Shown here: positions 3,428 to 55,305 of the stretch, piece after piece
Position numbering within the stretch: the stretch's first letter is position 1
Layout: each line of letters starts with the position of its first letter
NCBI GenBank assembly: GCA_043797125.1
Contig: JAZDPX010000006.1
Coordinates: forward strand, 70,921-134,920
Source: Candidatus Omnitrophota bacterium
GTDB lineage: Bacteria > Omnitrophota > Gorgyraeia > JABMRG01 > JAFGKX01
Length of the DNA stretch: 64,000 nucleotides
Direction of reading: 5' to 3'
Notes under the pieces: model-generated
The model's input: only the letters and a program-made list of their open reading frames with translations
Told to the model about the DNA's origin: nothing
Database searches by the model: none
Made by a program: the position numbers and the translations under genes

Positions 3428-3453
3428 GTAGCGCAGGCTTAAGCCTGCGCTAC
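3428..3453. repeat. Family A perfect palindrome GTAGCGCAGGCTTAAGCCTGCGCTAC (copy 1)
   Basis: 26-bp perfect hairpin. Identical copies are at 42733-42758 and 61727-61752. Confidence 0.8.
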
Positions 3454-4033: not shown

Positions 4034-5443
4034 TTACTCCAAAAGCTTATTCTGTTCTTCATCAAGCGGAAACCACTGCTTCCATAAATCTACATAATCT
4101 TTTATTGAGTGCGCAAAATCCTGAATAGCCATTGAAAATACCACAAAATTAGCGGAATTATCTTCAAAAAGCCTTTTATCGATAGGCAAAACGTAATTGA
4201 TTATCTTCTTGGGGTCGCTTATTTCCTCATACAAATCCAACACTTTCTGGATAGGAAATTCTTTTCCAAGCATAGCTTTTTCTTCAATGCCGGATTTCAT
4301 TAATTCATCAATTTTTTTGGCTGCCCTATCGAGAATAAGAGTTGCATCTGCTTTAATAATCTCGACCCGCCCAGCTTCATCATGTGTAATTTCATGTTTA
4401 TCGACCAATTTCTTAAGCGCCCTCTCGGAAAGCCCCCTAGCCAATTCTATTAAAACAATCTTTCTGTATTTAATCGAACCATCGGGAAGCGTTTCTCTTA
4501 GCATCTTTTTCAAAGGCAGACCCGAGAAGTGGCCGCCGCCTAAAACAACCGCCGCGCCTTGCTGTTTTACCCTATTCGATGCCCGCATAATCTCTTGTTT
4601 TACTTTTTCAAAATGCGCATTCAGTCTCCTGCTATGCTCTGTATCCTGCGAAATCATTGATGGATAAATCTCTGCTGCGTAGTTGTGGGTTTCGGCAAGT
4701 ACGGGGCCCAAAACTTCAGGGCCTCTTTCACCTTTAACCCAAAGATTCAAGCCCTCTATGCCCCGCGCAAAATCATCCGGTAAAAAACGCGTTGGCTGCT
4801 CGATGGTAAAAAAACTTAATCCTAATCTATACAGAAAATATGCTCTGTCAAAATCTATGCAGCCCATTCTGTAAATTCTTTCAGCCAAAAAATAAAAAAC
4901 ATCGCTTGGCATGTATAAATCGAAAATTAAATATTCGTATAGGCCTCTTAATGTAAGATCCTCTGCAGCTCCGAGCGCTTCATCATAAGCCTCTATTGCT
5001 TGCTTAGTTTTCCCCTGTGAATGAAAATATATACTTTGCAATATGTGCATAATAGGCCACAAGTTAATTCTAATAATAGTAGTGGCTTCTTCCTGATTAA
5101 TTCCTCTTTTTAGCATTTCGTTAGCAATCATCGTATCTAAAAATTCCGGCATCTTTTCATCCTCTAAAAAGAAAAATTCATCATAGTATTCGGGGGCATA
5201 TTTTATTATCAGGGCCACCAGCTGCTTTCCATCCTTCCATTTAGATTTAAAATACGCTATATTTGCGGTTCTAATTGCAGCTTTATCACGGTTCGGATCC
5301 AGCTCAAAGCCTGTTTTTTCTCTATCTCTATCAAAATTAACTTTGCTGACAGGCCGCAATCCGTCTTCGGCAAAAGCAGGGACTGTCCCTATTTTTGATG
5401 TTGCCAATATAATGGCTATTGCTATGGCGAGGAGTTTTCCCAT
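4034..5443 (-). CDS. Exported hypothetical protein; member of the 'LRP' N-terminal motif family
   Basis: 469 aa. The N-terminus MGKLLAIAIAIILATSKIGTVPAFAEDGLRPVSK has a signal peptide followed by GLRPV. Confidence 0.5.
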   Translation of the reverse strand: MGKLLAIAIAIILATSKIGTVPAFAEDGLRPVSKVNFDRDREKTGFELDPNRDKAAIRTANIAYFKSKWKDGKQLVALIIKYAPEYYDEFFFLEDEKMPEFLDTMIANEMLKRGINQEEATTIIRINLWPIMHILQSIYFHSQGKTKQAIEAYDEALGAAEDLTLRGLYEYLIFDLYMPSDVFYFLAERIYRMGCIDFDRAYFLYRLGLSFFTIEQPTRFLPDDFARGIEGLNLWVKGERGPEVLGPVLAETHNYAAEIYPSMISQDTEHSRRLNAHFEKVKQEIMRASNRVKQQGAAVVLGGGHFSGLPLKKMLRETLPDGSIKYRKIVLIELARGLSERALKKLVDKHEITHDEAGRVEIIKADATLILDRAAKKIDELMKSGIEEKAMLGKEFPIQKVLDLYEEISDPKKIINYVLPIDKRLFEDNSANFVVFSMAIQDFAHSIKDYVDLWKQWFPLDEEQNKLLE

Positions 5444-6574: not shown

Positions 6575-6775
6575 ACGTATAATAAGTGAGGTTTTTGCAA
6601 TGTGAGGTGCATTAGAAATTTTTTTCCAAATGTCTTTTTAGAACTTACGACGAGGGAACGGCTAAGTTTGGATGTTTGGGAAAGTGACCGAGTCGTAAGT
6701 TCAAAAAGACGGAAAAAAATTTCAGCACCGAACATTGCGAAAACCGAACTATGACAGAGATTGCTTCGTCGCCTG
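6575..6775. repeat. Long-hairpin element with conserved termini (family D, copy 1; MITE-like)
   Basis: The 5' end GTGAGGTTTTTGCAATGTGAGGT and the 3' end TTCAGCACCGAACATTGCGAAAACCGAAC are partially inverted (TTTTGCAATG / CATTGCGAAAA). The interior is self-complementary (GAAATTTTTTTCCAAATGTCTTTTTAGAACTTACGACGAG / GAGTCGTAAGTTCAAAAAGACGGAAAAAAATTTC). Confidence 0.6.
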
Positions 6776-8611: not shown

Positions 8612-8617
8612 ATCAAC

Positions 8618-8735
8618 TTTATCCGCCTTCCTTGCTTTTGAACTTCGTGGTAGATAACGTACGGCGGATAACCCGCCGTAGGCTATCTACTCCGAACTGC
8701 CCAATACACGAAGGCGGGCTATCTGGCATTCCTTC
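8618..8735. repeat. Family C composite GC-hairpin repeat (GGCGGATAACCCGCCGTAGGCTATCTAC ... ACACGAAGGCGGGCTATCT), copy 1
   Basis: It shares TTATCCGCCTTC, GAACTTCGTGGTAGATA, GGCGGATAACCCGCCGTAGGCTATCTAC and GAACTGCCCAATACACGAAGGCGGGCTATCT with 15378-15580. It overlaps the tsaB 3' end. Confidence 0.75.
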
Positions 8736-9391
8736 GGATATATATAAAGCGGCAGCAGTTTATAGGGTGAATCCTTATATCCTGCCTTATATCTTACCAA
8801 TGCCAGCTTTCCTAATACATCAGCCTTCGGATAACACGACTCCTCGGGCGCAAAAAAGACAAGCCCCTTTTTTGCCTTTAAAATCTTTTCCTTGTGCTGT
8901 TTGATTATGTCGCCGGCTATAATAGTCGGCTGTTTTATCAAATCCAGAATATCTTCTAACGGCTTTAAAATAAAATCTGTATACGGTTCTGCAGATGCCT
9001 CTTTTTGTTTATAAAAGCGCGCATAGGCATTATTCTGCCTGGCATCAAACAAGATACAAACATCGGTATTGGCCTGCCCTGTAAAATTATTTGCAATTAC
9101 ATCGAAACTCGAAACCCCGACCAAAGGCCTCTTTAGCGCTATGCTAAAAGTTCGTATGGCAGCAAGAGATGTCCTTAATCCTGTAAATGAACCCGGCCCT
9201 GTGCCTGCGCAAAAAAGCTCTATTTCTTCTATGCGCCAATTGATATTTTCCAGCAGTTTCTTAACTTCAGAAACAACTGCTGAGCCCTGGCTTCTTAAAA
9301 AATTCTTGTGCAACAGCGCCATGGGCTTTTCATCGCTTAAAAGGGCTATGCTAATTGTTTTTGTTGATGTATCTACCGCTAATATCTTCAT
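8687..9391 (-). CDS. tsaB: tRNA t6A biosynthesis protein TsaB (YeaZ); the C-terminal ~16 aa are encoded by a family-C repeat element
   Basis: MKILAVDTSTKTISIALL... is an inactive Kae1 paralog. The C-terminal PKECQIARLRVLGSSE* lies inside the repeat at 8687-8735. Confidence 0.75.
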   Translation of the reverse strand: MKILAVDTSTKTISIALLSDEKPMALLHKNFLRSQGSAVVSEVKKLLENINWRIEEIELFCAGTGPGSFTGLRTSLAAIRTFSIALKRPLVGVSSFDVIANNFTGQANTDVCILFDARQNNAYARFYKQKEASAEPYTDFILKPLEDILDLIKQPTIIAGDIIKQHKEKILKAKKGLVFFAPEESCYPKADVLGKLALVRYKAGYKDSPYKLLPLYIYPKECQIARLRVLGSSE

Positions 9392-9867: not shown

Positions 9868-9965
9868 TATGGGGACGTTTCACTCCCAAGATTGGGAAGT
9901 GTCCCCTTTACCCCACTTCTATGCTCTGGGGACACTTTCCACGCTTGGGAGTGAAACGTCCCCTT
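9868..9965. repeat. About 95-bp nested inverted repeat between thiL and tsaE
   Basis: GGGGACGTTTCACTCCCAAG ... CTTGGGAGTGAAACGTCCCC forms a 20-bp outer stem around GGGAAGTGTCCCC / GGGGACACTTTCC. Confidence 0.75.
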
Positions 9966-9977: not shown

Positions 9978-10874
9978 TTAAAAGTGTTCATATCCTTCAG
10001 GCTCAAGCCGGCTTTCCTTGCCCCTTCTATCAACCAAAACCATCCTTCCTGCATTATTCGTTATCTCGCCTATCGCGGTTATCTTTATTTTTCTTTTTTT
10101 GGAACTTGAAAGCAGCCTTTTGGCGTCTTTTTTCGCTGTCGTAAAAAGGAGCTCAAACTGCTCGCCTGTTGTAAGCGCTCTTTTTACGGATGCGCCTTCA
10201 TAAGGAATTAAAGACTCGTAAATTTTAGCGCCTTTTTTGCTTTCAGATAAAATGCGCCATAGGTCAAGCGCAAGTGAGTCAGATATATCTATCATGGAAT
10301 TTATCTTAAAATTATCCGCCAAAAACTGCGCTTCTTTAATCCTGGGAGAAAAACCTAAATCATTAGGATAAGGCCTTAAAGCCCCTGTTATAAATATCAC
10401 ATCTTGATCCTTCGCGCCGCTGCGAAGGGCAAGCCTTTTCTTGGATACTTCACCGATTAGAGTAACGGATAAAACCATTTTTTTTGAAAAATTTGTATCG
10501 CCGCCTACTATGGATATGCCGAATTCAGAAGCTGTCTTATGCATGCTAAGATAGAGCCTTTTAATAAAATCGACACTAATGTCCTTTGGCAGGCCTACTG
10601 AAACAAGCGCCCATTTTGCCTTGCCGGCGCATGCTGCTATATCGCTTATGTTCACCGCCATTGCCTTATGGCCTATCTGTTCCGGGGATGCCTTATCCAG
10701 CCTAAAATGCGCATCTTCAATTATCATATCGGTAGTAACAAGAAGATATTTGTCTTTAGTATATTTAAGCACGGCGCAGTCATCGCCAATGCCTTTAAAC
10801 ACCGAAGGGGGAGTCTTTGTAAGTGCGGCTATTTTATTTATTAGAGCTATTTCGCCTATGTCGCGTAGTTTCAT
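9978..10874 (-). CDS. thiL: Thiamine-monophosphate kinase
   Basis: The AIR-synthase-related fold shows in ...GDDCAVL...LLVTTDMIIEDAHF. Confidence 0.75.
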   Translation of the reverse strand: MKLRDIGEIALINKIAALTKTPPSVFKGIGDDCAVLKYTKDKYLLVTTDMIIEDAHFRLDKASPEQIGHKAMAVNISDIAACAGKAKWALVSVGLPKDISVDFIKRLYLSMHKTASEFGISIVGGDTNFSKKMVLSVTLIGEVSKKRLALRSGAKDQDVIFITGALRPYPNDLGFSPRIKEAQFLADNFKINSMIDISDSLALDLWRILSESKKGAKIYESLIPYEGASVKRALTTGEQFELLFTTAKKDAKRLLSSSKKRKIKITAIGEITNNAGRMVLVDRRGKESRLEPEGYEHF

Positions 10875-14491: not shown

Positions 14492-14496
14492 AATTT

Positions 14497-14580
14497 AGTC
14501 TATGGTCTATGGTCGATGGTCGATGGTTGATGGTCGATGGTTGATTACCGACTATAGACTATCGACTATTGACCATCGAC
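14497..14580. repeat. Family E repeat (GGTCGATGG / GACTATCGAC direct and inverted units), between ricT and metG
   Basis: TCTATGGTCTATGGTCGATGGTCGATGGTTGATGGTCGATGGTTGATTACCGACTATAGACTATCGACTATTGACCATCGACTATT. A related copy lies at 29470-29545. Confidence 0.7.
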
Positions 14581-15368
14581 TATTTATTATAATCCACCTT
14601 CACGTGCCTGCCGTCTTCAAGCTCAACCGTAACAACGCGTTTTAAAAAATTAACATCCACTACCTTCCCTGTTTCGTTCTGATATTTTATCTTTTGCCCC
14701 GGGTGCGGCAGGCCCTTGGAAAGTTTCTTGTAATGGGTATGTTCGTATGACAGGCAGCACATAAGCCTGCCGCAAAGCCCTGAAATTTTTGCCGGGTTTA
14801 GGGGAAGGTTCTGGTCCTTTGCCTGTTTTATCGAAACAGGTTCAAAGTCCCTCAAGAAACTTCTGCAGCAAAGCATCCTGCCGCAAGGCCCGAAACCTCC
14901 GAGGATCTTCGCTTCGTCGCGCACGCCGACCTGCTTTAATTCAATCCTGGCCTTGAACATCTTTGCTAAGTCTTTGACTAATTCCCTGAAATCTATTCTT
15001 TCCTCAGCTGTAAAATAAAATATGATCTTGCTGCAGTCAAAAGAGAATTCCCCCTTGATCAACTTCATGTTAAGTTTATGCTGGATTATTTTACCGTCGC
15101 AGGTCTTCATGACCTCTTTTATTTTTTCGCGGTTTTCTTTTATTTTGTTTATGTCTGCCTGGTCGGCGATTCTAACTGCTCTTGGAAGCTCCTCTTTAAG
15201 CTTTTTTTCATCCAACACCAGCTCTGCCTCTGATAAAATCTGCCCGTAATCAAGGCCCCTGTCCGCTTCGATAATAACATACGCTCCGGGAAAAACATTT
15301 AAATCGCCTATGTCATAAACCTCTATCTTGCCGAATTCTCTCTGTCTTATCTGTATCGCTCTCTTCAT
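14580..15368 (-). CDS. ricT: PSP1 C-terminal domain protein RicT/YaaT
   Basis: Strong similarity pattern to B. subtilis YaaT: ...IFYFTAEERIDFRELVKDLAKMFKARIELKQVGVRDEAKILGGFGPCGRMLCC. Confidence 0.8.
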   Translation of the reverse strand: MKRAIQIRQREFGKIEVYDIGDLNVFPGAYVIIEADRGLDYGQILSEAELVLDEKKLKEELPRAVRIADQADINKIKENREKIKEVMKTCDGKIIQHKLNMKLIKGEFSFDCSKIIFYFTAEERIDFRELVKDLAKMFKARIELKQVGVRDEAKILGGFGPCGRMLCCRSFLRDFEPVSIKQAKDQNLPLNPAKISGLCGRLMCCLSYEHTHYKKLSKGLPHPGQKIKYQNETGKVVDVNFLKRVVTVELEDGRHVKVDYNK

Positions 15369-15377
15369 TGTCTATCC

Positions 15378-15580
15378 TTTATCCGCCTTCGCTGTTAATA
15401 AGAACTTCGTAGTAGATATGCTTCGGCGGATAACCCGCCGTAGGCTATCTACCTTCGCCAAGCAGCTTTCGCGCTTGGCTTCGGCGGATACGCCCGCCGA
15501 AGGCTATCTACACCGAACTGCCCAATACACGAAGGCGGGCTATCTACTACGAACCCACCCGATACACGAAGGCGGGTTAA
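15378..15580. repeat. Family C composite repeat, copy 2 (longer, with internal duplication), between holB and ricT
   Basis: Same modules as copy 1, with extra units GGCGGATACGCCCGCCGAAGGCTATCTAC and CACGAAGGCGGG repeated. Confidence 0.75.
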
Positions 15581-17056: not shown

Positions 17057-18441
17057 ACTGTACCCTCCTTAGTATCTTCTATTGCTATGCCTTTGGCCTT
17101 TAATTCCTGCCTTATCAAATCTGCCTTTTTAAAATCTTTGGAGTTTCTTGCTTTATTGCGTTCGCTTATCTTTGACTCAACATAAGTCTCTAGTTGTGCG
17201 TCTATCTGTTTGCCCCTTAAAAATAGGCCGAATATGCCGCCCAACTCTTTTATCAACGTCGCTGCATATAGCATGTTTTCATCCGATGATTTATTTGCCT
17301 CTCTAAGCATATCAAATAAACAAGCCAATGCCTGCGGGGTGTTGAAATCGTCGTCCATTGCCTCTATAAATTTTTCTTTAAGCGCGTCTATTTGGGCTGC
17401 CTGCCCCGCACCTGAACGAAGTGAATGGTGCGGGGTGGGCTCTAGTCTATTTACTTTATCAAATAATATATAAAACCTCTCAAGCGCTGCCTTAGCCTCA
17501 TTCATCCTCTCGTCGCTAAAATCTATGGGCTGGCTGTAATGGCTGCTGATCATAAAAAATTTGATTGTTTCCGCGTCGTATTTTTTCAAAGCAGCCTTAA
17601 TTGTTATAAAATTCCCTAAAGACTTTGCCATCTTTTGGCCGTTTATGGTCAACAGGCCGTGGTGTATCCAGTATTTTGCAAATGGTTTACCTGTGCGCGC
17701 CTCTGCCTGCGCAATCTCGTTTTCGTGGTGAGGAAATATCAGGTCCCTGCCGCCTGCGTGTATATCAAGCGTATCTGTCTTTAAAAACTTCTGGCTCATT
17801 ACAGAACATTCTATATGCCAGCCTGGCCTGCCGCCCCCCCAGGGGCTATCCCATGAAGGCTCGCCTTCCTTTGAAGTCTTCCATAACGCAAAATCCAGCG
17901 CATCCTGTTTTTTCTCATCAGGCTCAATGCGCACTCCCTCACGCATCTGGTCTATATTCTGCCCTGAGAGCTTGCCGTAACCGGAAAACTTCTTTACATT
18001 AAAATACACATCCCCGCCTGCTTTATAAGCATAGCCTTTGTCTATCAATACCTTTATATATTCGATAATATCAGCAATAGTCTTGGTTGCCCTTGGTTCC
18101 TCTTTATCTTTATCTAATATGCCTTTACGTATATTCAACAACCCTAAATCTTTGTTATAGCTTTCAATGTATTTACTAACAAGTTCTTTCCAATCAACTT
18201 TCAGCTCTTTGGCGCGGTTTATTATTTTATCGTCGATGTCTGTAATGTTGCGCACAAAATTAACCTTATAACCTCTATATTCTAAATACCGTCTCATTAC
18301 ATCGAAAACATAAAGGCTCCTGGCATGGCCTACATGAGACTCGTCATATACGGTTACCCCGCACGTATACATATTCACCGTCTTCGGCTTTATCGTCTCG
18401 AACTCTTCTTTCTTGTTTGTAAGCGAATTATATATTTTCAT
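17041..18441 (-). CDS. cysS: Cysteinyl-tRNA synthetase; carries an in-frame palindromic repeat insertion (family F)
   Basis: HIGH (HVGHARS) and KMSKS (KMAKSLGN) motifs are present. The insertion peptide LEPTPHHSLRSGAGQAAQ is encoded by the element at about 17395-17450. Confidence 0.9.
   Translation of the reverse strand: MKIYNSLTNKKEEFETIKPKTVNMYTCGVTVYDESHVGHARSLYVFDVMRRYLEYRGYKVNFVRNITDIDDKIINRAKELKVDWKELVSKYIESYNKDLGLLNIRKGILDKDKEEPRATKTIADIIEYIKVLIDKGYAYKAGGDVYFNVKKFSGYGKLSGQNIDQMREGVRIEPDEKKQDALDFALWKTSKEGEPSWDSPWGGGRPGWHIECSVMSQKFLKTDTLDIHAGGRDLIFPHHENEIAQAEARTGKPFAKYWIHHGLLTINGQKMAKSLGNFITIKAALKKYDAETIKFFMISSHYSQPIDFSDERMNEAKAALERFYILFDKVNRLEPTPHHSLRSGAGQAAQIDALKEKFIEAMDDDFNTPQALACLFDMLREANKSSDENMLYAATLIKELGGIFGLFLRGKQIDAQLETYVESKISERNKARNSKDFKKADLIRQELKAKGIAIEDTKEGTVWRPA
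17395..17450. repeat. Family F hairpin element inserted in-frame in cysS
   Basis: GGGCTGCCTGCCCCGCACCTGAACGAAGTGAATGGTGCGGGGTGGGCTC, with stem CCCCGCACC / GGTGCGGGG. It is flanked by GTCTATTT ... AGTCTATTT, a possible 8-bp direct duplication. Confidence 0.7.
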
Positions 18442-18467
18442 TATCTTTTACCAACCAAACTCTTCTC

Positions 18468-18700
18468 ACGGGTGAGGTTTTTGCGATGTGAGGTACTTAA
18501 AAAGCTTTTGTGTGTGTTGCCGGAGCGACTGTCAAAAATTGCGAAAACCCGGCGAGCAGTGAGCAATTTTTGCCACAGCGAGCAAAAAGCGCCTTTCGCC
18601 GAAGGCGAAAAATCCTTTTTGCGAGCGGCAAGCGAAGGCAACCACACAAAAGCTTAAAATTTCAGCACCGAGCATTGCAAAAGCCGAACTTTGGTAATAG
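18468..18700. repeat. Family D long-hairpin element, copy 2, between cysE and cysS
   Basis: Same termini (GTGAGGTTTTTGCGATGTGAGGT ... TTCAGCACCGAGCATTGCAAAAGCCGAAC). The interior is a different perfect inverted repeat (AAGCTTTTGTGTGTGTTGCC / GGCAACCACACAAAAGCTT). Confidence 0.6.
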
Positions 18701-21575: not shown

Positions 21576-22937
21576 CTAAAAACTAATATCTGCCGCTTCC
21601 TGAATATTTTTAACTCCTAAAAGCTTTATTTGTTTATGCGCTTTTATATGAGTCATGTCCTGCTTGGGCAAAATGCATCTTTTAAAACCTAAGCGGCTTG
21701 CTTCATTAACCCTTAGCTCTATTTGCCCAACGCCGCGTATTTCTCCCCCAAGGCCTATCTCGCCTATAAATATGGTTTCATTATCAACCGGCTTGTTTTT
21801 AAAGCTGGAGGCGATTGCGACAGTTACCGCTAAATCGCAGGCCGGCTCAGCTATCTTTATTCCTCCTGCTACATTTACAAATACATCGTGGTTTACCAAA
21901 TTTAAACCAAGCCTTTTCTCCAGGACAGCTATTAACAGCAACAGCCTGTTTAAGTCATATCCTATGGCGCGCTGCCTGCTCATAGAAAAATTAGAGGCTG
22001 TTACCAAAGCCTGTATCTCAACAAGGATAGGCCTTGTCCCTTCTATAGTCGAAACAACCGTGCTGCCGGAAATATTTTCACCGCGCGCTGAAAGGAAAAC
22101 TTCAGAAGGGTTTTCGACCTCTATTAACCCTTTCTGCGTCATGTGAAATACCCCTATCTCGTTAGTGGGGCCGAATCTGTTTTTTGTGCTCTTTAGTATC
22201 CTGAACGCTGTCAGGTTTGCGCTTTCAAAATATATCACGCAATCAACCATATGCTCCAATATTTTCGGTCCGGCTATCGAGCCTTCCTTTGTAACATGGC
22301 CCACAATAAACAGAGAAAATCCTTTGTATTTTGCCAGGGCGGTTAATGCGCCGGCTGATTCCTTTATCTGCGTAACGCTTCCCGCTGTCTGGGAAAAATC
22401 CTTATTATACAAAACCTGTATTGAGTCTATAACTACTATATCGGGGTTTAGACTTTCAATGTGCTCCGCGATGGACGAGACCTCGATATCATTAATCACG
22501 TATAGGTTATCTGACGAAATACCCAGCCTTTCCGAGCGCATTTTAGTCTGCGTGATGGATTCCTCGCCGCTGACATAAAGCACTCTTTTCTCTTTTGCCA
22601 GAATATTGGAAACCTCGAGCAAAAGAGTGGATTTGCCTATTCCGGGTTCGCCCCCGATTAAAATAACGGAGCCGGCTACTATGCCTCCTCCGAGGACTCT
22701 GTCTAATTCATTTATATTTGTTTTTGTTCTTATGCAGTCGTTCTGTTTTACATCTTTAAGCCTTTGCGGCGGCATATTTGAAGAATAAGACCTTCTTGTA
22801 ATGCTCTCGGAAACAGCGCCTTGCGCCATCTCTTCCATTAAGCTGTTCCACTTCTGGCAATCAGGGCAGCGGCCCAGCCATTTCGGGCTTTGGCACCCGC
22901 ATTCCTGACAGATAAATATAGTCTTCGTAGTAGTCAT
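21576..22937 (-). CDS. radA: DNA repair protein RadA/Sms. The true start is probably the ATG at 22937, not the ORF-track start at 22979
   Basis: MTTTKTIFICQECGCQSPKWLGRCPDCQKW is the N-terminal Zn finger. It is followed by a RecA-like P-loop (GGEPGIGKST), a KNRFG motif and a Lon-like C-terminal domain. The 14 codons upstream of 22937 are encoded by an AT-rich family-B repeat. Confidence 0.85.
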   Translation of the reverse strand: MTTTKTIFICQECGCQSPKWLGRCPDCQKWNSLMEEMAQGAVSESITRRSYSSNMPPQRLKDVKQNDCIRTKTNINELDRVLGGGIVAGSVILIGGEPGIGKSTLLLEVSNILAKEKRVLYVSGEESITQTKMRSERLGISSDNLYVINDIEVSSIAEHIESLNPDIVVIDSIQVLYNKDFSQTAGSVTQIKESAGALTALAKYKGFSLFIVGHVTKEGSIAGPKILEHMVDCVIYFESANLTAFRILKSTKNRFGPTNEIGVFHMTQKGLIEVENPSEVFLSARGENISGSTVVSTIEGTRPILVEIQALVTASNFSMSRQRAIGYDLNRLLLLIAVLEKRLGLNLVNHDVFVNVAGGIKIAEPACDLAVTVAIASSFKNKPVDNETIFIGEIGLGGEIRGVGQIELRVNEASRLGFKRCILPKQDMTHIKAHKQIKLLGVKNIQEAADISF

Positions 22938-22940
22938 GGA

Positions 22941-23048
22941 TTTAATTAAAAATTCAAAATTAAAAATGCAAAATTGCAATTAAAAATTTAAAATTTAAAA
23001 TTTTGAATTTTTAATTGTAATTTTTAATTTTACATTTTTAATTTTTAA
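22941..23048. repeat. Family B AT-rich palindromic repeat (AATTAAAAAT..AAAATTGCAATT..), copy 1, between mlaD and radA
   Basis: Long AT-rich dyad built from AATTAAAAATT / AATTTTTAATT and GCAAAATTGCA units. Related copies are at 30440-30556 and 44884-44960. Confidence 0.7.
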
Positions 23049-23049
23049 T

Positions 23050-23730
23050 TTATCTAATGCCTTTATCCTTATCCTCTTCTGTCTTCCTCGGCTCTCTTGG
23101 CTTGCTCAAAAGCTTCCAGGGGTTTTGCCTTATATCCTTGATCATCGCTTTTATATCTTCCGATATCTCTTCTATATTATTATATAATTTATCATCCATA
23201 AGCAGCTTGCCGACCGTACCTTCTTTTGCCTTTACCTTATCCAGGATGCCATTTATAGAATCCAGCATTGTTTCTATTTTAAGTATGACATCATAACCTT
23301 TTTGCGTCATCTTCTGCATCGAAACGGAATCAAATCCTATGATAACATCTCCGTCCTGCAAAACAGGGCTCTCGGGCGTGCCGGGAATTATCTCAACATA
23401 TTTTTCTCCTATAAGCCCCAATGTGTTTATAAGCACTGTGGCGTCCTTCTCAATCTTGGCATCATCAGTAAGCCACACCATTAATTCAACTTTTGTCTTT
23501 TTGGTCTCGGGGTCCTTAAATATACTAGTGCTTTTTACTTCTCCTACTTCGACACCGGCAACTCTGACAGGAGCCGCTATCTGAACGCCGTCGGCAAAAT
23601 TCAGGTGTATTTTTATATTGTATCCTGTTTTAAAGAGAAAATCCCCTATTGAAAAAACTACCATGGCAAGAAGTATAATGCCTACAAATACGAATATACC
23701 TATTCTTATTTCAAAACTATTCTCTTTCAT
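23050..23730 (-). CDS. mlaD: MlaD (MCE domain) phospholipid transport substrate-binding protein
   Basis: An N-terminal TM segment is followed by an MCE domain. Confidence 0.75.
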   Translation of the reverse strand: MKENSFEIRIGIFVFVGIILLAMVVFSIGDFLFKTGYNIKIHLNFADGVQIAAPVRVAGVEVGEVKSTSIFKDPETKKTKVELMVWLTDDAKIEKDATVLINTLGLIGEKYVEIIPGTPESPVLQDGDVIIGFDSVSMQKMTQKGYDVILKIETMLDSINGILDKVKAKEGTVGKLLMDDKLYNNIEEISEDIKAMIKDIRQNPWKLLSKPREPRKTEEDKDKGIR

Positions 23731-29455: not shown

Positions 29456-29469
29456 CGAAACTCCCTAAT

Positions 29470-29545
29470 TTGGTCCATAGTCTATGGCCAATGGTCTATA
29501 GTAAATTATCGACCATAGACTATCGACTATTGACTATCGACTAAA
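29470..29545. repeat. Family E repeat, copy 2, between ilvE and mcsA
   Basis: GGTCCATAGTCTATGGCCAATGGTCTATAGTAAATTATCGACCATAGACTATCGACTATTGACTATCGACT uses the same units. Confidence 0.7.
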
Positions 29546-30439: not shown

Positions 30440-30556
30440 TGTTTAATTAAAAATTTAAAATTAAAAATGTAAAATTGCAGTTCAAAATTAAAAATTGTTT
30501 TAAATTTTGAATTTTTAATTGTAATTTTGAATTTTGCATTTTTAATTTTTAATTAT
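30440..30556. repeat. Family B AT-rich palindromic repeat, copy 2, between lolD and ilvE
   Basis: TTCAAAATTAAAAATTG ... CAATTTTTAATTTTGAA dyad centred on GTTTTAAA. It shares AAAATTGCA and TTTTAATTGTAATTTT with copy 1. Confidence 0.7.
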
Positions 30557-31274
30557 TCTCCAGCTTTCCATTAGCTAAATACTTGACATTCTTAAATAAT
30601 TTAGCATATTCACGCTCATGTGTCACTATAATAAAAGAACAATTTTTCTTACTGTTAAGCTCTTTAATCAACTCAAATACAGCCACAGAATTATCGTGGT
30701 CTAAATTACCCGTAGGCTCATCGCATAATACTATATCGGGTTTATTCATCAATGCCCTTGCTATTGCCACCCTCTGAGACTCCCCGCCTGAAAGTTGCGA
30801 CGGCCGGTGGCTGGTTCTCTTTTCGAGCCCAACCGCGCTTAAAAGCTCCTGCGCCCTTTGCTTTGGGCTTTGGGCTCTGTGCTGTGGGCTGCCTGCCCCG
30901 TATCCGAGCGAAGCGAGTGGTGCGGGGTGGGCTCCAATCAGCGCGGGCATCATAACATTTTCCAAAGCGGTAAATTCGCCAAGCAGGTTGTAAAACTGGA
31001 ATACAAATCCAATGCGTTCATTGCGTATCCTGCTTATCTTTGCATCATTCATCTTATATACAGAGGCGCCGTCTAGCAGGACCTCGCCTTTAGTCGGTGA
31101 ATCCAAAGCGCCGAGTATATGAAGCAGCGTGGACTTGCCGCAGCCTGATGGCCCGAATACCAGCATTATCTCGCCGGCACAAAGAGAAAGATCTATTCCG
31201 TTCAATACATGCAACTTGCGGCTTCCGTCCTGATATACCCTGTGCACGTTTTTCGCGGCTAAAATTTCACTCAT
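30549..31274 (-). CDS. lolD: Lipoprotein-releasing ABC transporter ATPase LolD; carries an in-frame repeat-derived insertion
   Basis: Walker A (GPSGCGKST), signature (LSGGESQRVA) and Walker B are present. The insertion GAHPAPLASLGYGAGSPQHRAQSPKQ is encoded by the heptamer tract plus family-F hairpin at about 30858-30945. Confidence 0.8.
   Translation of the reverse strand: MSEILAAKNVHRVYQDGSRKLHVLNGIDLSLCAGEIMLVFGPSGCGKSTLLHILGALDSPTKGEVLLDGASVYKMNDAKISRIRNERIGFVFQFYNLLGEFTALENVMMPALIGAHPAPLASLGYGAGSPQHRAQSPKQRAQELLSAVGLEKRTSHRPSQLSGGESQRVAIARALMNKPDIVLCDEPTGNLDHDNSVAVFELIKELNSKKNCSFIIVTHEREYAKLFKNVKYLANGKLENN
30858..30947. repeat. Heptamer tract plus family F hairpin inserted in-frame in lolD
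   Basis: CTTTGGGCTTTGGGCTCTGTGCTGTGGGCTGCCTGCCCCGTATCCGAGCGAAGCGAGTGGTGCGGGGTGGGCTCC. The GCTGCCTGCCCCG...GGTGCGGGGTGGGCTC part matches the cysS insertion. Confidence 0.7.
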
Positions 31275-38980: not shown

Positions 38981-39139
38981 AAATTCTTTATAAAAGGTTT
39001 ATAGAGATAAATATTTTAACACTCTGCTCCTGCTAAGTCAAGAAAATATCGGACTTTTTTTGAATTAGATCCCCGCTCCCCGTTTTCACGGGGACAAGTT
39101 TCGCGGGGATGACAAAAGAAGCTTTGTGTGCGTTGCCAA

Positions 39140-39372
39140 AATTATTTTTTACAAGGTGAGGCTTTTGCAATAGCACATTACAATTTGCTTAAGGCCTGTG
39201 GCAAGCCGAGCAGGGCTTGCGAGGCCGAGCGGGCATGGTTCGCCCTTGTTTCCATACAGGCGAGAGCGAAGGCCGAGGTCAGAGCACAAAAATCCACGCT
39301 GGGGATTTTTGTGCGTCCCTGCGAGAATTGCCACAAGCCTTAAGCAAAACAGCATCAAGTATTGCAAAAGCC
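39140..39372. repeat. Family D long-hairpin element, copy 3, upstream of the AsmA-like gene
   Basis: Termini GTGAGGCTTTTGCAATAGCAC ... GTATTGCAAAAGCCGAGCC. The interior inverted repeat is GCTTAAGGCCTGTGGCAA / TTGCCACAAGCCTTAAGC. Confidence 0.55.
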
Positions 39373-39430
39373 GAGCCTATGCCCCGAGGCTTTTTGTTGT
39401 TGCAGGTTTGCGCATTGCGGGGTATAATTT

Positions 39431-42732: not shown

Positions 42733-42758
42733 TAAGATAGTAGCGCAGGCTTAAGCCT
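42733..42758. repeat. Family A palindrome (copy 2), between rph and rdgB
   Basis: Identical 26-mer. Confidence 0.8.
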
Positions 42759-42789
42759 GCGCTACTACTATACGCTATCGACCATCTTT

Positions 42790-44877: not shown

Positions 44878-44883
44878 TTTTTA

Positions 44884-44960
44884 CCTATTTTTAATTTTTA
44901 ATTGTAATTTTGCATTTTGCATTCCTGCCTGCCGGCAGGCAGGTTTAATTTTGAATTTTT
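44884..44960. repeat. Family B repeat, copy 3, plus GC palindrome CCTGCCTGCCGGCAGGCAGG; overlaps the queF 3' end
   Basis: TTTTTAATTGTAATTTTGCATTTTGCATT shared with the other copies. It supplies the queF C-terminus and stop. Confidence 0.6.
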
Positions 44961-45350
44961 TATATATTCTCTCTCCAGCGTCGTCTTAATCCCTCCCCTT
45001 ACATTAAACTCACACATTATCTGCGCCCAGCGCGGCTTGCAGCAGGATATAAAGTCATCTAATACCTTGTTCGCTATATGCTCATGAAATATGCCTACAT
45101 TCCGATAGCCGTACAAATACAGTTTAAAGGATTTAAGTTCCACGCATAATTTATCCGGAATATATCTTAAGACAACGCGCGCAAAATCAGGCAGCCCTGT
45201 CTTGGGGCACACGCAGGTAAACTCCGCGGTCTCTAAGGTCACAACATACTCTTTATCGGAATATTTATTTTCGATAGTATCTATCTTCGGAGTTTTCAGC
45301 TTTCTTATATTCTCCTGTAGGCCTTTATAGGATTTATTTATTTTTTTCAT
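44898..45350 (-). CDS. queF: NADPH-dependent 7-cyano-7-deazaguanine reductase QueF; the C-terminal tail and stop come from a family-B repeat
   Basis: ...FTCVCPKTGLPDFARVV... matches the QueF active-site Cys motif. The last ~19 aa (NSKLNLPAGRQECKMQNYN*) are encoded by the repeat at 44884-44960. Confidence 0.8.
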   Translation of the reverse strand: MKKINKSYKGLQENIRKLKTPKIDTIENKYSDKEYVVTLETAEFTCVCPKTGLPDFARVVLRYIPDKLCVELKSFKLYLYGYRNVGIFHEHIANKVLDDFISCCKPRWAQIMCEFNVRGGIKTTLEREYIKNSKLNLPAGRQECKMQNYN

Positions 45351-50194: not shown

Positions 50195-50232
50195 AACAAC
50201 GATTCGGTAAACGGTACCGGTTTTACGCTGCC
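50195..50232. repeat. Family J shared 3' element (…CGATTCGGTAAACGGTACCGGTTTTACGC[T/C]GCC) at the end of the 998-aa gene
   Basis: The 30-bp core is identical to 53421-53450. It contains the CGGTACCG palindrome and supplies the …AA* stop. Confidence 0.7.
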
Positions 50233-53219
50233 TGCGCTATTACATTTTCATTACGGCTGTTTTTGTTGAGCTTCTCCGTCTGGTTATAATATATAAGCGG
50301 ATCCTTAAGATATTTCGTATAATATTCCGGGCCAAACTTTACAGGTTCTGCCGGTTCTAAAATATCATTAATAAGCTGCTCTATAAATTGCGGATTGGGA
50401 ATCTTGTCGCCGTTTGCGGCAATAAATTTTATAATTTTTCCCATTTCACTATTTATAATGCTTCCGTGTTTTTTCATTACAAAATGCACAACCATATGAT
50501 AGTACCAATCAGCGTACATGTAGCGGATGGGCAAATAAACCGTAAACCATATATAATGAATGAGCGCGCAATACCTCGGGTATTTTCTAAGTTCAGCCGG
50601 TGCGGGAAATTTTTTCACTTCGTCAAGATTATCCCATTGCAGCTTTTTTAGGGCTTCGAGCTCAGGGACATCGAGGCTGCCGAACATTTCTTTATATTTT
50701 TCTGGTTCATATTTTTTTACATCCGATATCATATATAAAAGCTCATCTATATTCATGTCGGCAAAGTAATCAGCCTTACTTCTGTATCCGACAAGGTCCT
50801 CCAAACGGTGGGCGATTAAAAACTTTTTTATTAACTCGAGCGGCATTTGTTCGCCTTTGGAATTCCGGGGATATTTTGCCAGCCATTCTGGGGTATAAAG
50901 CATATTTTCAATAAATCTTGCCATACCCTCCTTCATTCTTGTGTCGCACGAAGCAAACGTCGGCCCCTCTCTGTAATCAGAATAGAGATGGTCAATCGCG
51001 TGTCCCGACTCATGAAACATCACCCATGCGGTTAACCGACCACCTGAGGCAAGCGTAATTATAATTCGCGTATCTTTCTCGCCAAGCGCGCAGCATACTC
51101 CGGGATGTTTAAACCTCCCTGTCTCCGTTTTTCTTGAGTCTGAGGGGTTTGTATCAAAGTATATCATTTCCGCGTCTAAACCGAGGTCTTTTAAAGTTTC
51201 CAGAAACATACCCATAAGTTTGTTCGCGGGAAGATATTCATCCACCTCTTTATAAACATCTCGCAGGGCCCAACTTGTGTTCCAGGGCGCCGGTTCAAGC
51301 TCAGCACTTTCTTTTTTAAGAAGATCGGCAATCTCTTGGTCAGCTCGCTTTATGTCATCTTTCAAATCAACTTTCATCTGCTTCATAAAACGCTTATACT
51401 CATCGAAATCAGCTCTTTGAACTCGAGCTTGTAATTGATGATAATTGGTAAGAGACGGGATATTGTACTTTTCAGCCACCAACTTGGTTGCCTCATTTTG
51501 CAAATCTTTCACTTGTTCTTTTCGCGGTTCAAATGCCTCTGCGCGCCACATCCAAAGCATATATGCCCATTCTCTCAACTCTTCTTTAGGTTCAGTTTCG
51601 AATATCTCAAGTATGTTATTATCGCCTACCGGCCTTGCTTTAAATGCCGTGGATATCACATTATATATCGCGTCTTTCTTTTTCCAATCTTTTTCCTCAT
51701 TTAATATACTAAGAACTTTTTTATCATCCGCGATTTCCTTTTTCCCCTTGTAGATATTCGATATTGATGTATACAATTTTTGCTTTTTTTTTGCATCGTT
51801 ATTGCTTGCAAGCGTCTCGCTGGCCTCATCATTATCCACGACTGTCCCGCTAGCCCGGGATAAGAGCAGATATGCTTCTCTTTTTTTGATTTTGTCTTTT
51901 GCCTTATCCAATACATTGAATGCCATAGAATTGTTTTTAATATATTTGCCTCTGAAAAATGTCGATATATACATATATGCTTTGCACTTTTTCACTTTAT
52001 CAGGGTCATCTGATAACAAAGAAAGCGTGTCTTTCTTATATATGGCCTTCCCATAGAGCTTGTATAAAAAATCATATATCTTTCCTAGTTCTTTCCTCCT
52101 GCCCTCTTTTTGCAACTCCTCCATCGCCTGGTTTGCCGCGACAGGACTATTAATTCTTTTAGTGCCCGTAAGCCAGGATATAATTTTATACATTTCCCAT
52201 TTTTTTATCTCGCTGGTTTCGGCTGTTAACAGCTTTTTAACATCGTTGTCGTCATAAATAAGCGGGCCGCCATAAATCATAGGGAAACTCATATAATCTG
52301 CATCCATTGTGTTTTTAAACGTCGATACTGGAGGGCTTTCCTCAACCTGGCTTAGCAAAAGCGAGTCGAAAAGATCCTCATACTTTCTTTTAAGATAATA
52401 TTCGCTAACCAGCTTTGAATACGCTAAGACCTTTTTAGATAAGGTTTCGTCTGTAACTATTTTTAATATTTCCTTTCCGATTTCAGCGTATTTCTTAGCG
52501 GTAGCCTGCGCCAACTCTTTATCACAAGTAAACATGGGCTGTTCTTCGTATAACCTGCTTTCACGCCAGGTTTCACCCCAGTTGGCACCGAAACGCTTTC
52601 TTTGAAGGAGCATCTCCTTTTCTTCCTCGCTCAATGTGGCTAAATATTTTTCATACTCCTGTTTACTTCCTTCAAATTCCCCGATAGCGCTCATTAACCG
52701 AAACTGAACAATACCATGCTCTATACCTTTATTGTATAATGGCAGGTAAGCCTCATCAAAAAATTTGCGCGCGGATTTTTCCAAATCTCTTTTCTTGAGT
52801 ATGCCGTTTGGAAATATATCTTTAATGCACTGGGCATATTGCAGGATATCTTGCTGTTTTTCTTTTTCCTTTATTGCTCTGCTCTTAAAAAACTTCGACA
52901 CATTGCTGTTTTTTAGTGATATTTCTTGCTTTAATGGCTCGCCCTTTTTTCTCGGCAGTTTCGACAGCGCGACAATCAACTCCTGCGCCAAGGCAATATT
53001 CTCCGCTTTTTGCTGGTCGGGCGCCTCTTGGCGCATATCATCATATTTCTTTTTCAGCATATCATATGTTATAGAATCTTTGATAAACGATATGGGCCGC
53101 AAAGCGGAAGAATCGCTGTTTGTTCTGGTGCATATTTGCGACTTTTGGAAAGCTAGCTGGTTGGATAAAAAGACAGTTGCTAATAATAATGATGATATTC
53201 TCTTTATAAGTATTTTCAT
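50223..53219 (-). CDS. Large exported HExxH protein (putative gluzincin-type metallopeptidase); LRP motif family
   Basis: 998 aa with a signal peptide followed by ...SDSSALRPISF. The HExxH site is MFHESGHAIDHLY with a downstream Glu (MKEGMARF). The C-terminal ...QAA* and the stop are contributed by the family-J repeat. Confidence 0.55.
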   Translation of the reverse strand: MKILIKRISSLLLATVFLSNQLAFQKSQICTRTNSDSSALRPISFIKDSITYDMLKKKYDDMRQEAPDQQKAENIALAQELIVALSKLPRKKGEPLKQEISLKNSNVSKFFKSRAIKEKEKQQDILQYAQCIKDIFPNGILKKRDLEKSARKFFDEAYLPLYNKGIEHGIVQFRLMSAIGEFEGSKQEYEKYLATLSEEEKEMLLQRKRFGANWGETWRESRLYEEQPMFTCDKELAQATAKKYAEIGKEILKIVTDETLSKKVLAYSKLVSEYYLKRKYEDLFDSLLLSQVEESPPVSTFKNTMDADYMSFPMIYGGPLIYDDNDVKKLLTAETSEIKKWEMYKIISWLTGTKRINSPVAANQAMEELQKEGRRKELGKIYDFLYKLYGKAIYKKDTLSLLSDDPDKVKKCKAYMYISTFFRGKYIKNNSMAFNVLDKAKDKIKKREAYLLLSRASGTVVDNDEASETLASNNDAKKKQKLYTSISNIYKGKKEIADDKKVLSILNEEKDWKKKDAIYNVISTAFKARPVGDNNILEIFETEPKEELREWAYMLWMWRAEAFEPRKEQVKDLQNEATKLVAEKYNIPSLTNYHQLQARVQRADFDEYKRFMKQMKVDLKDDIKRADQEIADLLKKESAELEPAPWNTSWALRDVYKEVDEYLPANKLMGMFLETLKDLGLDAEMIYFDTNPSDSRKTETGRFKHPGVCCALGEKDTRIIITLASGGRLTAWVMFHESGHAIDHLYSDYREGPTFASCDTRMKEGMARFIENMLYTPEWLAKYPRNSKGEQMPLELIKKFLIAHRLEDLVGYRSKADYFADMNIDELLYMISDVKKYEPEKYKEMFGSLDVPELEALKKLQWDNLDEVKKFPAPAELRKYPRYCALIHYIWFTVYLPIRYMYADWYYHMVVHFVMKKHGSIINSEMGKIIKFIAANGDKIPNPQFIEQLINDILEPAEPVKFGPEYYTKYLKDPLIYYNQTEKLNKNSRNENVIAQAA

Positions 53220-53344: not shown

Positions 53345-53452
53345 TTCGAAGTTATTCGGGACAGTGTCCTGTTTCTGTTCGGGTAGCTGTTTCCCGAACA
53401 GCTTTGGGACAGCTTCCCGAACGATTCGGTAAACGGTACCGGTTTTACGCCG
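53345..53452. repeat. Family J element, copy 2, at the end of the MFS gene, with adjacent GTTCGGGAAACAGC / GCTGTTTCCCGAAC-type inverted repeats
   Basis: AACGATTCGGTAAACGGTACCGGTTTTACGCCGCCCGC. Upstream of it is TTCGGGTAGCTGTTTCCCGAACAGCTTTGGGACAGCTTCCCGAAC. Confidence 0.65.
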
Positions 53453-54644
53453 CCCGCATTTTCCTGGAGTATATAAGCGTCGCTATTATGCAGCATACGC
53501 CGCCGAAAAACAGGGTACTGGGCGCGCCGATTTTGCCTGCTAAAAATCCCGCTAACAAGCTGCCGAACGGCGCCATGCCTATAAACGCCATGGTAAAAAG
53601 GCTCATGATCCTGCCGCGCTTATCTTCCTCCACGACAGTCTGTAAAACCGTATTGCTCGCCGCCATCTGAACCATTAACGCGAAGCCTGCGGCGAATATA
53701 ACCGCCATTGAAAACCACAAAACTTTTGATAAGGCAAACACAATAATCCCCAATCCGAAAATTCCCGAGGCTATCGCTATTATTTTATGTAAACCTGCAA
53801 CGCCTTTTCTGCGGGCAAGGTAAATGGCGCCCGTCAAAGCGCCTGCGCCGGCTGCTGCCATAAGAAAGCCGAGTGTTTCAGGCCCTTTGTGAAAAATATC
53901 CTTCACAAAGACAGGCATTAATAACTGGTAAGGCGCGCCTAATAAACTCGCCGCGCCAAGCAGAATAAGAACTGCCCTTATAGGGACGAAGTTAAAGGCG
54001 TAAACAAAGCCTTCTTTCAAATCCTGCAGTATATGCTTATCAGATGGTATTATTGCCCTGGGGGTAACATTCATCGCCAATAAAGCTATAATAGCGGCTA
54101 TATAGCTTGCTGCATTTAACAAAAAACATGGGCCCTCGCCAAATGCCGCGATTATTATGCCCGCGATTGAAGGGCCTAGAAGCCGAGCGACATTGACCAT
54201 CGAAGAATTTAACGCTATGGCATTGCCCAGGTCTTCCTTTTTCCCTATCATCTCAACGGTAAAAGCCTGCCTTATAGGCATGTCAAAGGAATTCACCACG
54301 CCAAGAATTACGCTTAGCGCTATAATATGCCATATCGCCACGATATCCGCCAGCACAAGCACTGCCAATACCAGCGCCTGGATCATCGCAAGTATCTGCG
54401 TAACTACCAGAATACGGTGCCGGTTGTATCTGTCGGCTATAACTCCCGCCAAAGGCATCAATAAAAAAGCAGGCAGCTGGCCCATAAACCCAACGATACC
54501 CAGCAGCAATGCGGAGTTCGTAAGCCTGTAAACCAGCCAGCTCATGGCAATCTGCTGCATCCATGTGCCGATTAAGGATATACCCTGGCCTATAAAAAAT
54601 AAGCGGTAGTTTCTATATCGCAATGCCCTAAATAAAAATTTCAT
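53445..54644 (-). CDS. MFS transporter (EntS/YbdA-like efflux family)
   Basis: 12-TM pattern with ...LFFIGQGISLIGTWMQ... Confidence 0.7.
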   Translation of the reverse strand: MKFLFRALRYRNYRLFFIGQGISLIGTWMQQIAMSWLVYRLTNSALLLGIVGFMGQLPAFLLMPLAGVIADRYNRHRILVVTQILAMIQALVLAVLVLADIVAIWHIIALSVILGVVNSFDMPIRQAFTVEMIGKKEDLGNAIALNSSMVNVARLLGPSIAGIIIAAFGEGPCFLLNAASYIAAIIALLAMNVTPRAIIPSDKHILQDLKEGFVYAFNFVPIRAVLILLGAASLLGAPYQLLMPVFVKDIFHKGPETLGFLMAAAGAGALTGAIYLARRKGVAGLHKIIAIASGIFGLGIIVFALSKVLWFSMAVIFAAGFALMVQMAASNTVLQTVVEEDKRGRIMSLFTMAFIGMAPFGSLLAGFLAGKIGAPSTLFFGGVCCIIATLIYSRKMRAA

Positions 54645-54796: not shown

Positions 54797-55233
54797 TGGT
54801 GGAGGCGAGGGGAATTGAACCCCTGTCCTTGAGCGTTCAGCAATAGGCGCTACATGCTTGTCCTGTGCTTTGAATTCGCCCCGATAATCTTGCATAGGCA
54901 CAATCTCATCGGGACTAGCTTTTAAAAATCTCATCCTGCTCTCTAAAAGCTAAAAAAGCGGGACCAGCCTATTAATGACGCCAGACCCGGGCTAAATAGG
55001 CAAACCCGGCTGACGGTAGCCGCGTATTAGGCGGCTAGCGGCATCATGGAAACCATTCCTGTGTTAACAGGAACAACTTCCATGACTTTAGCGCGAATTG
55101 TATCCGCACTTATCATGTAGTCGGCTTTTGCTCCTCGCTTTCGCTCGGAGTCCCTTACGGGACAAGGCCAACCGACCAACCTTGGCATGCTCCTAGTTGC
55201 CCAATCGCATCAAGTCGAACCCTGTTCGCCCCC
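54797..55233 (-). ncRNA. ssrA: tmRNA (SsrA)
   Basis: The minus-strand 5' end GGGGGCGAACAGGGTTCGACTTGATGCG pairs with the 3' end ...GGACAGGGGTTCAATTCCCCTCGCCTCCACCA to give a tRNA-like acceptor/T-arm with CCA. It lies immediately downstream of smpB. A candidate tag ORF ends ...MMPLAA-UAA at about 55026. Confidence 0.8.
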
Positions 55234-55239
55234 ATTTGT

Positions 55240-55305
55240 GTATTGAGTATTGAGTCGTGAGTATTGAGCACTCAATACTCAATACACACGACTCACGACT
55301 AAACA
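55240..55305. promoter_or_regulatory. Imperfect palindrome of GTATTGAG / CTCAATAC units between smpB and ssrA
   Basis: GTATTGAGTATTGAGTCGTGAGTATTGAGCACTCAATACTCAATACACACGACTCACGAC. It could be the smpB terminator and/or ssrA promoter region. Confidence 0.4.

Follow-up and report, generated by a model that had tools for sequence, protein, structure and literature searches.

The stretch of DNA analysed here, referred to as the window, is 64 kb of a metagenome-assembled genome (MAG) of Candidatus Omnitrophota. Its GC content is about 42%, its minus strand carries nearly all of the genes, and its proteins are identical to NCBI entries (e.g. MFH0731418.1). The genome is compact: 34 of the 61 gene junctions in the window are overlaps or gaps of at most 15 nt, the commonest class being a 4-nt overlap (ATGA). 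Palindromic repeats, many of them made of degenerate 7-nt units, occupy nearly all of the longer spacers. The features considered below are these:

8617..8724, minus strand: family-C copy that fills the tsaB/alr junction, a nested palindrome 84-94% identical to 15377-15545
8687..8719, minus strand: repeat-encoded tsaB end, ARLRVLGSSE and TAG by codon reading, absent in 23 of 23 aligned orthologs
8720..8737, minus strand: ancestral tsaB codons PKECQI, with C222 invariant and Y218, P219, K220, E221 and Q223 at least 90% conserved
14492..14582, unstranded: heptamer palindrome (TAGTCGA/TGGTCAA units) at the PSP1/metG junction, z = -5.6, its first three bases being the PSP1 TAG stop
15369..15576, minus strand: composite family-C array of four modules that fills the holB/PSP1 junction, 208 nt, with a 37-nt period in 2.1 copies
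22937..22939, minus strand: ATG at which radA truly starts; in the ORF, residue 15 is matched by position 1 of TIGR00416, and NCBI MFH0731432.1 is the 453-aa product
22943..23051, unstranded: B1, a family-B inverted pair of degenerate heptamers at the mlaD/radA junction, z = -4.7
29456..29543, unstranded: second copy of the TAGTCGA/TGGTCAA palindrome, z = -4.9, its first three bases being the aminotransferase TAG stop
30444..30557, unstranded: B2, a family-B inverted pair at the ABC ATPase/aminotransferase junction, 90% identical to B1 over 113 nt
44878..44960, minus strand: probable queF/fumarase insertion of about 81-83 nt, a single A-rich family-B arm (44944-44960 and 44887-44923) split by a GC palindrome
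44924..44943, unstranded: nested 20-nt perfect palindrome CCTGCCTGCCGGCAGGCAGG, coding for LPAGRQ in the tail of QueF; found once in the window against a chance expectation of 0
50198..50235, minus strand: J copy 1, where the orphan gene for the 998-aa protein ends, covering its last codons and TAA (50223-50235)
53420..53457, minus strand: J copy 2, at the end of the MFS gene, in direct orientation 3222 nt from copy 1

The tsaB ORF (8687..9391) codes for 234 aa and its stop codon (8689-8687) lies inside repeat family C. This family is defined by two pairings, 8617-8690 with 15377-15452 (84% over 76 nt, E 1e-12) and 8662-8724 with 15482-15545 (94% over 64 nt, E 1e-19); its pattern had no match elsewhere in the genome-contig or metagenome-contig collections. 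The copy at tsaB has terminal inverted arms CCCGCCTTCG...GAAGGCGG enclosing an inner hairpin GTAGATAGCCTACGGCGG-GTTAT-CCGCCGTACGTTATCTAC, and it folds at -55.3 kcal/mol (z = -7.0), none of 200 shuffles being as good.

An earlier note on this DNA had assigned the last 16 residues of TsaB (8687-8735) to family C. A repeat-encoded tail is indeed present, but it is shorter than that. Across 23 orthologs of the clade the motif PLYIYPKECQ[IV][KR]K is conserved, the proteins ending in CQ[IV][KR]K plus 0-16 more residues, and the repeat extends no further than 8724. This makes PKECQI ancestral and leaves just the 10 residues ARLRVLGSSE and the stop to the repeat; the higher count presumably arose because the TsaB profile match ends at residue 217. 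Bases 8720-8724 (AGATA) are compatible with both the family-C repeat and the ancestral CAG ATA.

At the PKECQI site the DNA of two relatives, L002 and L001, reads tgc cag ata/gta aaa. In L002 tsaB ends in tgc cag ata aaa aaa gtg aaa aaa taa, and 2 nt separate this stop from the alr ATG; the end in L001 is similar but carries a different short repeat-like tail. If 8621-8720 is cut out of the window in silico, the sequence left reads tgc cag ata aag ttg ata tga, that is CQIKLI and a TGA that overlaps the alr ATG as an ATGA junction. This reconstruction may represent the state of the junction before insertion. A possible GAT is the only candidate target-site duplication flanking the copy. When genome contigs were searched by alignment for close tsaB loci, only relatives of at most 32% identity were found, and the matches were dominated by the universal GPGSFTGLR motif.

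The second family-C copy is the array at the holB/PSP1 junction, whose first base abuts the holB TAA (15577); holB is 4-8 aa shorter in the window than in L002 and L001. Both copies terminate in GAAGGCGGATAAAG, 5-11 nt ahead of the next ATG, and this may be a ribosome-binding site for the downstream gene.

Other repeat-like sequence was seen in and around tsaB. Several of the orthologs P0004-P0013 (alignment A1, columns 137-160 and 200-245) have in-frame inserts at one loop, e.g. IIRDTRYEIRDT and LTYNLQLTTYN, and one has a 35-aa insert containing GDTCPF. N-terminal extensions also occur in this set, and both inserts and extensions resemble translated repeats. A 36-nt inverted repeat, GGGGACGTTTCACTCCCAAG..., lies at 9871-9963 between thiL and tsaE, and peptides related to it (KGTFPV) are found in TsaB ortholog tails and at the L001 tsaB end. 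In L002 the tsaB stop and alr start fall within 28 nt (10679-10706) that share 93% identity with an arm of family B (AAAAATAAAAATGCAAGATTCAAAATT), possibly a remnant of a B-like copy that encodes the first residues of Alr.

The second tail is that of QueF. The queF ORF (44898..45350) codes for 150 aa and the QueF profile ends near residue 130-132. Among the 120 matches listed, QueF homologs mostly have 128-133 aa (about 86% query coverage). Most aligned orthologs end at REYKK(x), where the window protein continues ...REYIKNSKLNLPAGRQECKMQNYN to its stop. Residues K131-N150 and the TAA (44898-44960) are encoded by a family-B arm with its nested palindrome, which bears out the claim that queF ends in about 19 residues encoded by family B. 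Near-identical 20-nt palindromes occur twice in L001, once in the hisS tail and once in an intergenic spacer. In L004, L005 and L006 the gene order at queF/fumarase is the same and the two genes meet in an ATGA overlap; the window junction therefore probably carries an insertion of some 81-83 nt, and its excision in silico gives REYIK and a stop in an ATGA junction. The earlier note had proposed ortholog alignment as a way to check the gene ends, and in such alignments the repeat-encoded tails are missing from the aligned TsaB and QueF orthologs. Like those of TsaB, the orthologs of QueF show further lineage-specific tails and inserts that resemble translated repeats.

At other junctions the repeats reach the stop codon with little or no effect on the protein. 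Family B pairs 22941-23050 with 30442-30554 (90% over 113 nt, E 7e-36), with a shorter copy at 44887-44923; the ends of B1 and B2, AATTAAAAATT / AATTTTTAATT, are palindromic and TTAA-like, which would mask any target-site duplication. The mlaD TAA (23050-23052) overlaps the first base of B1, and B2 contains the final codon of the ABC ATPase gene together with its TAA (30549-30554). In the PSP1/metG spacer of 88 nt the heptamer palindrome extends into the PSP1 stop; the holB/PSP1 and PSP1/metG junctions are both ATGA overlaps in L002. Altogether, the first bases of a repeat form, overlap or adjoin the stop at PSP1 (14580), aminotransferase (29541), MlaD (23050), ABC ATPase (30549) and holB (15577). 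Repeat-linked stops are thus commoner than the earlier note had listed, and tails of real length are confined to TsaB and QueF. Its statement that repeats donate tails and stops to at least five genes holds for stops, which five unlisted genes share, and for the tails of two genes, but radA and the MFS gene drop out as tail cases. The protein ends VDYNK (PSP1) and VRYDI (aminotransferase) had also been considered as repeat-derived coding sequence; this was rejected for PSP1 because of the conservation of its C-terminal VKVDYNK in L001 and L002. The heptamer palindrome that L001 has at PSP1/metG (4958-5013) is a different one (TTATCAG/CTGAGAA), and it too starts at the TAG stop.

Family B is also found at gene ends outside this genome. 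A 19-mer of the family picked out 120 metagenome loci, and blastn identified 28 B-like copies in 26 of these, many of them single arms. At 8 of the 28 copies, a reading frame open for 90 codons or more has its stop within the element or no further than 3 nt from the edge, giving tails such as KLKTKNEKLKITIKN-stop and AKCKVQNYN-stop. The latter, in locus L191, is in the same frame as the QueF end ...ECKMQNYN-stop, and the ortholog of the L191 protein in L199 stops 8 nt into its copy, after three codons.

The case of radA concerns the start and not the end of the gene. The start in the ORF track, TTG 22979, lies inside B1, and the claim that the real start is at 22937 is confirmed by the RadA profile, which begins at ORF residue 15. 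As a donated C-terminal tail, or one of five such genes, radA was rejected, the case being a start-codon artefact of the ORF listing: its 14 extra codons result only from the longest-ORF rule of that listing. The NCBI annotation (PGAP) places RadA at ATG 22937 and the aminotransferase at ATG 30419, and its stops coincide with the ORF stops for tsaB, queF, the 998-aa gene, MFS, PSP1, holB, mlaD, ABC ATPase, aminotransferase and alr. The assertion that automated annotation systematically mis-calls gene ends in this genome is not supported, the radA start being correct and the stops in agreement; translation does truly end at a stop codon even where that codon belongs to a repeat.

The repeat termed J stands apart. 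It consists of an identical 31-mer within a 38-mer, present in exactly two direct copies that bracket the 998-aa gene (50223-53219, minus strand), and it is a weakly structured, non-palindromic sequence on folding. It had been grouped with the palindromic repeats; a direct non-palindromic pair does not belong there. The 998-aa and MFS proteins were also said to owe their final Ala-Ala and stop to a shared family-J 30-mer. The shared 38-mer in two copies is real, but upstream of the stop only 8 of 10 bases match, largely because both proteins end in Ala-Ala. Such ends are found in 5 of the 63 genes (3614, 35320, 37481, 50223 and 53445; minus-strand 3' ends), where 0.4 would be expected (binomial P about 5e-5), and three of the genes share GCAGCGTAA without J. 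The MFS protein ends in ...SRKMRAA, and most of its nearest aligned homologs run 20-45 aa further through a conserved LPxLRxxxRPxYxxxGIxP; by this alignment it is truncated by 20-45 aa and not extended. The 998-aa protein has an HESGH (HExxH) motif; a search of 5.8 billion proteins gave no homolog for it, and neither Pfam nor NCBIfam has a match. A tmRNA gene (54797-55233, minus strand) has an unusually long predicted tag of 26 residues, ADTIRAKVMEVVPVNTGMVSMMPLAA, ending ...PLAA, and is preceded by a TTGAGTA heptamer palindrome (55236-55285).

One explanation applies to J only: the two 38-mers would be the duplicated junction of a single event, either an insertion or a local duplication of the orphan-gene segment at the MFS 3' end, and both genes would share their last codon(s) and stop through copying of one 3' end. 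The exact number of copies, two and direct, 3222 nt apart around the orphan gene and its upstream region, fits this, as do the lack of homologs of the 998-aa protein, the loss from the MFS protein of the C-terminal 20-45 aa conserved in its homologs, the weak non-palindromic fold, and the fact that no fetched locus contains a J copy. Against it, the missing MFS C-terminus leaves no remnant downstream of either copy on inspection by eye, no integrase or other mobility gene is evident alongside, and two copies fit a family or a single duplication alike. We regard such an event as tentative, its chances being somewhat short of even, and for J a repeat family is no better an explanation than one duplication or a cassette junction.

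Further repeats were noted within genes and in spacers. The L001 HisS end (2700-2760) is a CTGAAAA heptamer array with a nested palindrome CCTGCCGGCAGGCAGG, translated as ...NLPAGRLKTDN-stop. GC-rich palindromes at 17393-17447 (cysS residues 332-350) and 30885-30939 (ABC ATPase residues 112-130) are 85-88% identical and read in different frames; the second adjoins a heptamer array, GCTTTGG x 4.4 (30860-30890), and the ABC domain match in that gene is about 28 residues longer than the profile. Comparison of the cysS palindrome (17393-17447) with L002 gave no clean net insertion. Another heptamer array, GCTGTGG x 7.4 (52 nt), lies at 44204-44255 inside the fumarase alpha-subunit gene. A perfect 26-nt palindrome, GTAGCGCAGGCTTAAGCCTGCGCTAC, occurs in three copies of 100% identity (3428-3453, 42740-42765 and 61728-61753), two of which share extra flank reaching the preceding stop codon. 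A direct repeat at 27367/27595 was rejected as a DNA element, being the duplicated Clp_N domain of ClpC at the protein level. A non-coding core of about 150 nt is some 92% identical between genomes whose proteins are 55-79% identical (window 18442-18700, L002/L003 959-1111, L006 974-1121); it lies upstream of cysS in the window and in L002 and at queC/queE in L006, and the window copy is enclosed by a shell, the ends of which are found again at 6586-6753 and 39138-39374. A search of Rfam gave no match for this core, and in the window only the tmRNA reached gathering score, no repeat being a known RNA family.

The most probable reading, to which we give a probability of roughly 75%, is that REP/MITE-like hairpin repeats were inserted into tight gene junctions and that the tails are tolerated by-products of read-through. 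Several families of short repeats with strong hairpins, many built from degenerate 7-nt units, would have entered junctions that were ancestrally ATGA overlaps or 2-nt spacers. As such junctions would have had no spare DNA, the one place for an insertion to survive would be the very 3' edge of the gene upstream. There it would remove or displace the native stop, and the ribosome would continue into the repeat as far as the first in-frame stop. Since stops occur in nearly all frames of the repeats, three classes of outcome would follow. The protein would be left unchanged where the stop is formed by or abuts the repeat (PSP1, aminotransferase, MlaD, ABC ATPase and holB), would acquire a new tail in TsaB (+10 aa) and QueF (+ about 19 aa), and would be truncated in the case of the MFS protein. 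J itself does not fit this scheme.

Tight junctions without the repeat are observed in relatives at four places: tsaB/alr (L002), queF/fumarase (L004 and L006), and holB/PSP1 and PSP1/metG (L002). They probably reflect insertion in the window as opposed to loss in the relatives. Family B is also observed at the ends of other genes. The elements are probably mobile. In eleven elements, 31 of the 33 frames reach a stop inside the element, after 0-41 codons. The mean run to a stop expected at random from composition is 15 codons, and tail lengths of 10 and about 19 codons thus match passive read-through. The tails would be translated because there is no earlier in-frame stop, and they are probably neutral. 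Each family has 2-3 copies in the 64 kb, and the window showed neither a transposase or RAYT gene nor a clear target-site duplication. The different PSP1/metG palindrome of L001 counts against insertion, as it fits turnover in place equally well. Also against this reading, many family-B copies are single arms, unable to form the long hairpin.

It is conceivable, if rather unlikely, that the hairpins serve operon junctions as functional RNA or DNA structures (acting in mRNA stability, processing, termination or stop-start adjacency) that are kept in place and evolve by heptamer slippage, overlap with gene ends then reflecting selection for proximity to the stop codon. Every family begins within a few bases of a stop and only a few bases separate its end from the next start, the folds are strong with a helix base that brings stop and start together, and period-7 arrays are pervasive; the L001 palindrome at PSP1/metG is also in keeping with this. 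Against such a role, B1 and B2 are 90% identical over 113 nt at unrelated junctions, family-B copies lie beside unrelated genes in many metagenome contigs, and the close relative L002 has no element at tsaB/alr, holB/PSP1 or PSP1/metG. No Rfam family matches the repeats and no T-run follows the hairpins. A functional role would in any case be compatible with insertion, as a mobile element can also have an effect.

A related proposal, which we consider unlikely, is that heptamer palindromes with or without the nested GC palindrome of about 20 nt are a distinct junction element that occurs throughout Omnitrophota as single arms or inverted pairs and is tolerated or favoured as the hairpin keeps stop and start adjacent and so preserves translational coupling where the junction was once an ATGA overlap. 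If this were true, the stop-rich sequence would provide safe termination in any frame, and Ala-Ala ends derived from repeats or junctions (5 of 63) could be ssrA-like degradation signals.

The earlier note had concluded that the repeats are routinely exapted into coding sequence. Its factual core stands: repeats overlap gene 3' ends, supply stops and give two real tails, and they do so also in relatives and in unrelated metagenome contigs. The idea that the tails were co-opted as functional parts of TsaB, QueF and other proteins is, however, very improbable, and the mis-annotation predicted alongside it is not supported. The QNYN-stop ending recurs in one frame in the window QueF and the unrelated L191 protein, NLPAGR is common to the window QueF and L001 HisS, and Ala-Ala ends exceed chance in the window. 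Yet with three frames available, recurrence in one of them is a chance expectation, with the position of the stop fixed by the sequence of the repeat, and the L199 ortholog of the L191 protein stops after three codons. The tails are absent in all aligned orthologs and are plain frame translations, one repeat giving different peptides in different frames; their lengths are those expected at random, and the MFS protein is shortened, losing a conserved segment. Nothing points to selection for the tail peptides. Finally, chimeric joins caused by repeats during assembly are scarcely credible even in a MAG, given that gene order at every repeat-bearing junction agrees with relatives, that the repeats are at most 208 nt long and that independent contigs from other samples show the same type of overlap.

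The elements were compared with several known systems. REPs of Proteobacteria are short imperfect palindromes that are by definition extragenic; REPs within 15 nt of a stop codon are said to affect translation (a finding attributed to Liang, Rudd and Deutscher in 2015), and REPINs were reportedly described by Bertels and Rainey in 2011. The elements resemble REPs and REPINs as short imperfect palindromes just 3' of stops inside operons, occurring as singlets and inverted doublets. The family-C inner hairpin and the 26-nt perfect palindrome with its three copies have the form of a REP hairpin (a short imperfect palindrome of about 20-40 nt), and B1 and B2 are inverted pairs where B3 and many metagenome copies are single arms. 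Ends of the GTAG...CTAC type are present in family C (GTAGATAGCC...TTATCTAC) and in the 26-nt palindrome (GTAGCGCAGGC...GCCTGCGCTAC) and in none of family B, which is AT-rich with a 7-nt periodicity, unlike REPs. Nor are the elements strictly extragenic, since they contain the stop codons of three genes, tsaB, queF and that of the ABC ATPase. Terminal inverted repeats as in MITEs are found in family C (CCCGCCTTCG/GAAGGCGG) and in B1 and B2 (AATTAAAAATT/AATTTTTAATT).

MIRUs, reportedly placed in intercistronic operon junctions by Supply et al. in 1997, are direct tandem units of 46-100 bp with small ORFs and not hairpins. Like them, the elements described here occupy operon junctions and overlap the upstream stop; they may also supply the region of the downstream start, where family C ends in GAAGGCGGATAAAG, a putative RBS, 5-11 nt before the ATG; they are, however, inverted repeats or hairpins and not direct tandem units with small ORFs. 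Cyanobacterial heptamer repeats (STRR) and nested small dispersed repeats (SDR) are said to have been described by Mazel et al. in 1990 and Elhai et al. in 2008. In these, tandem 7-nt units in non-coding spacers have a palindrome of about 20 nt nested in the array, and the tails of QueF and of HisS in L001, as well as the insert in the ABC ATPase, may be analogous in architecture; the cyanobacterial repeats belong to another phylum and have other sequences.

The closest precedents in outcome come from two other groups. In the ERIC-like elements RU-1/RU-2 studied by Delihas in 2007 the repeat removes the normal stop of an amidase, which grows from 461 to 496 aa (+35) and stops inside the repeat (PMC2759123). 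There too a conserved gene gains a tail past its domain from a small intergenic palindrome lying at its 3' end; the differences lie in sequence, which is unrelated, in host phylum and in architecture, which here is heptamer-built with GC-rich nested palindromes. RPEs and MITEs are known to fuse in frame with host genes, and RPEs are, like the repeats here, non-autonomous palindromic repeats tolerated and translated in housekeeping proteins of a reduced, compact genome (review, PMC10969869). RPEs are about 150 bp long, mostly internal and in frame, with a conserved peptide, whereas the elements in the window lie at the extreme 3' end and give frame-dependent peptides. With these peptides and no Rfam match the likeness to RPEs is one of consequence only, and the two are probably unrelated. 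By resemblance, then, these are REP/MITE-like junction elements, at most putative members of the families compared.

Change at the C-terminus driven by repeats is already documented in Rickettsia and Enterobacteria, and what is new is its occurrence in this phylum and with these repeat families; a literature search on Omnitrophota repeats found nothing relevant. The understanding of the pathways concerned is unchanged by the repeat tails. For the annotation of Omnitrophota the finding means that where a housekeeping protein has an odd C-terminal tail, internal insert or N-terminal extension, this is often a translated repeat and not a new domain, examples being the TsaB and QueF orthologs and L001 HisS, and that the end of a repeat-free ortholog marks the functional boundary of the protein. 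More generally, where a compact genome hosts selfish or structural repeats, the last few codons of genes are the sole free landing sites.
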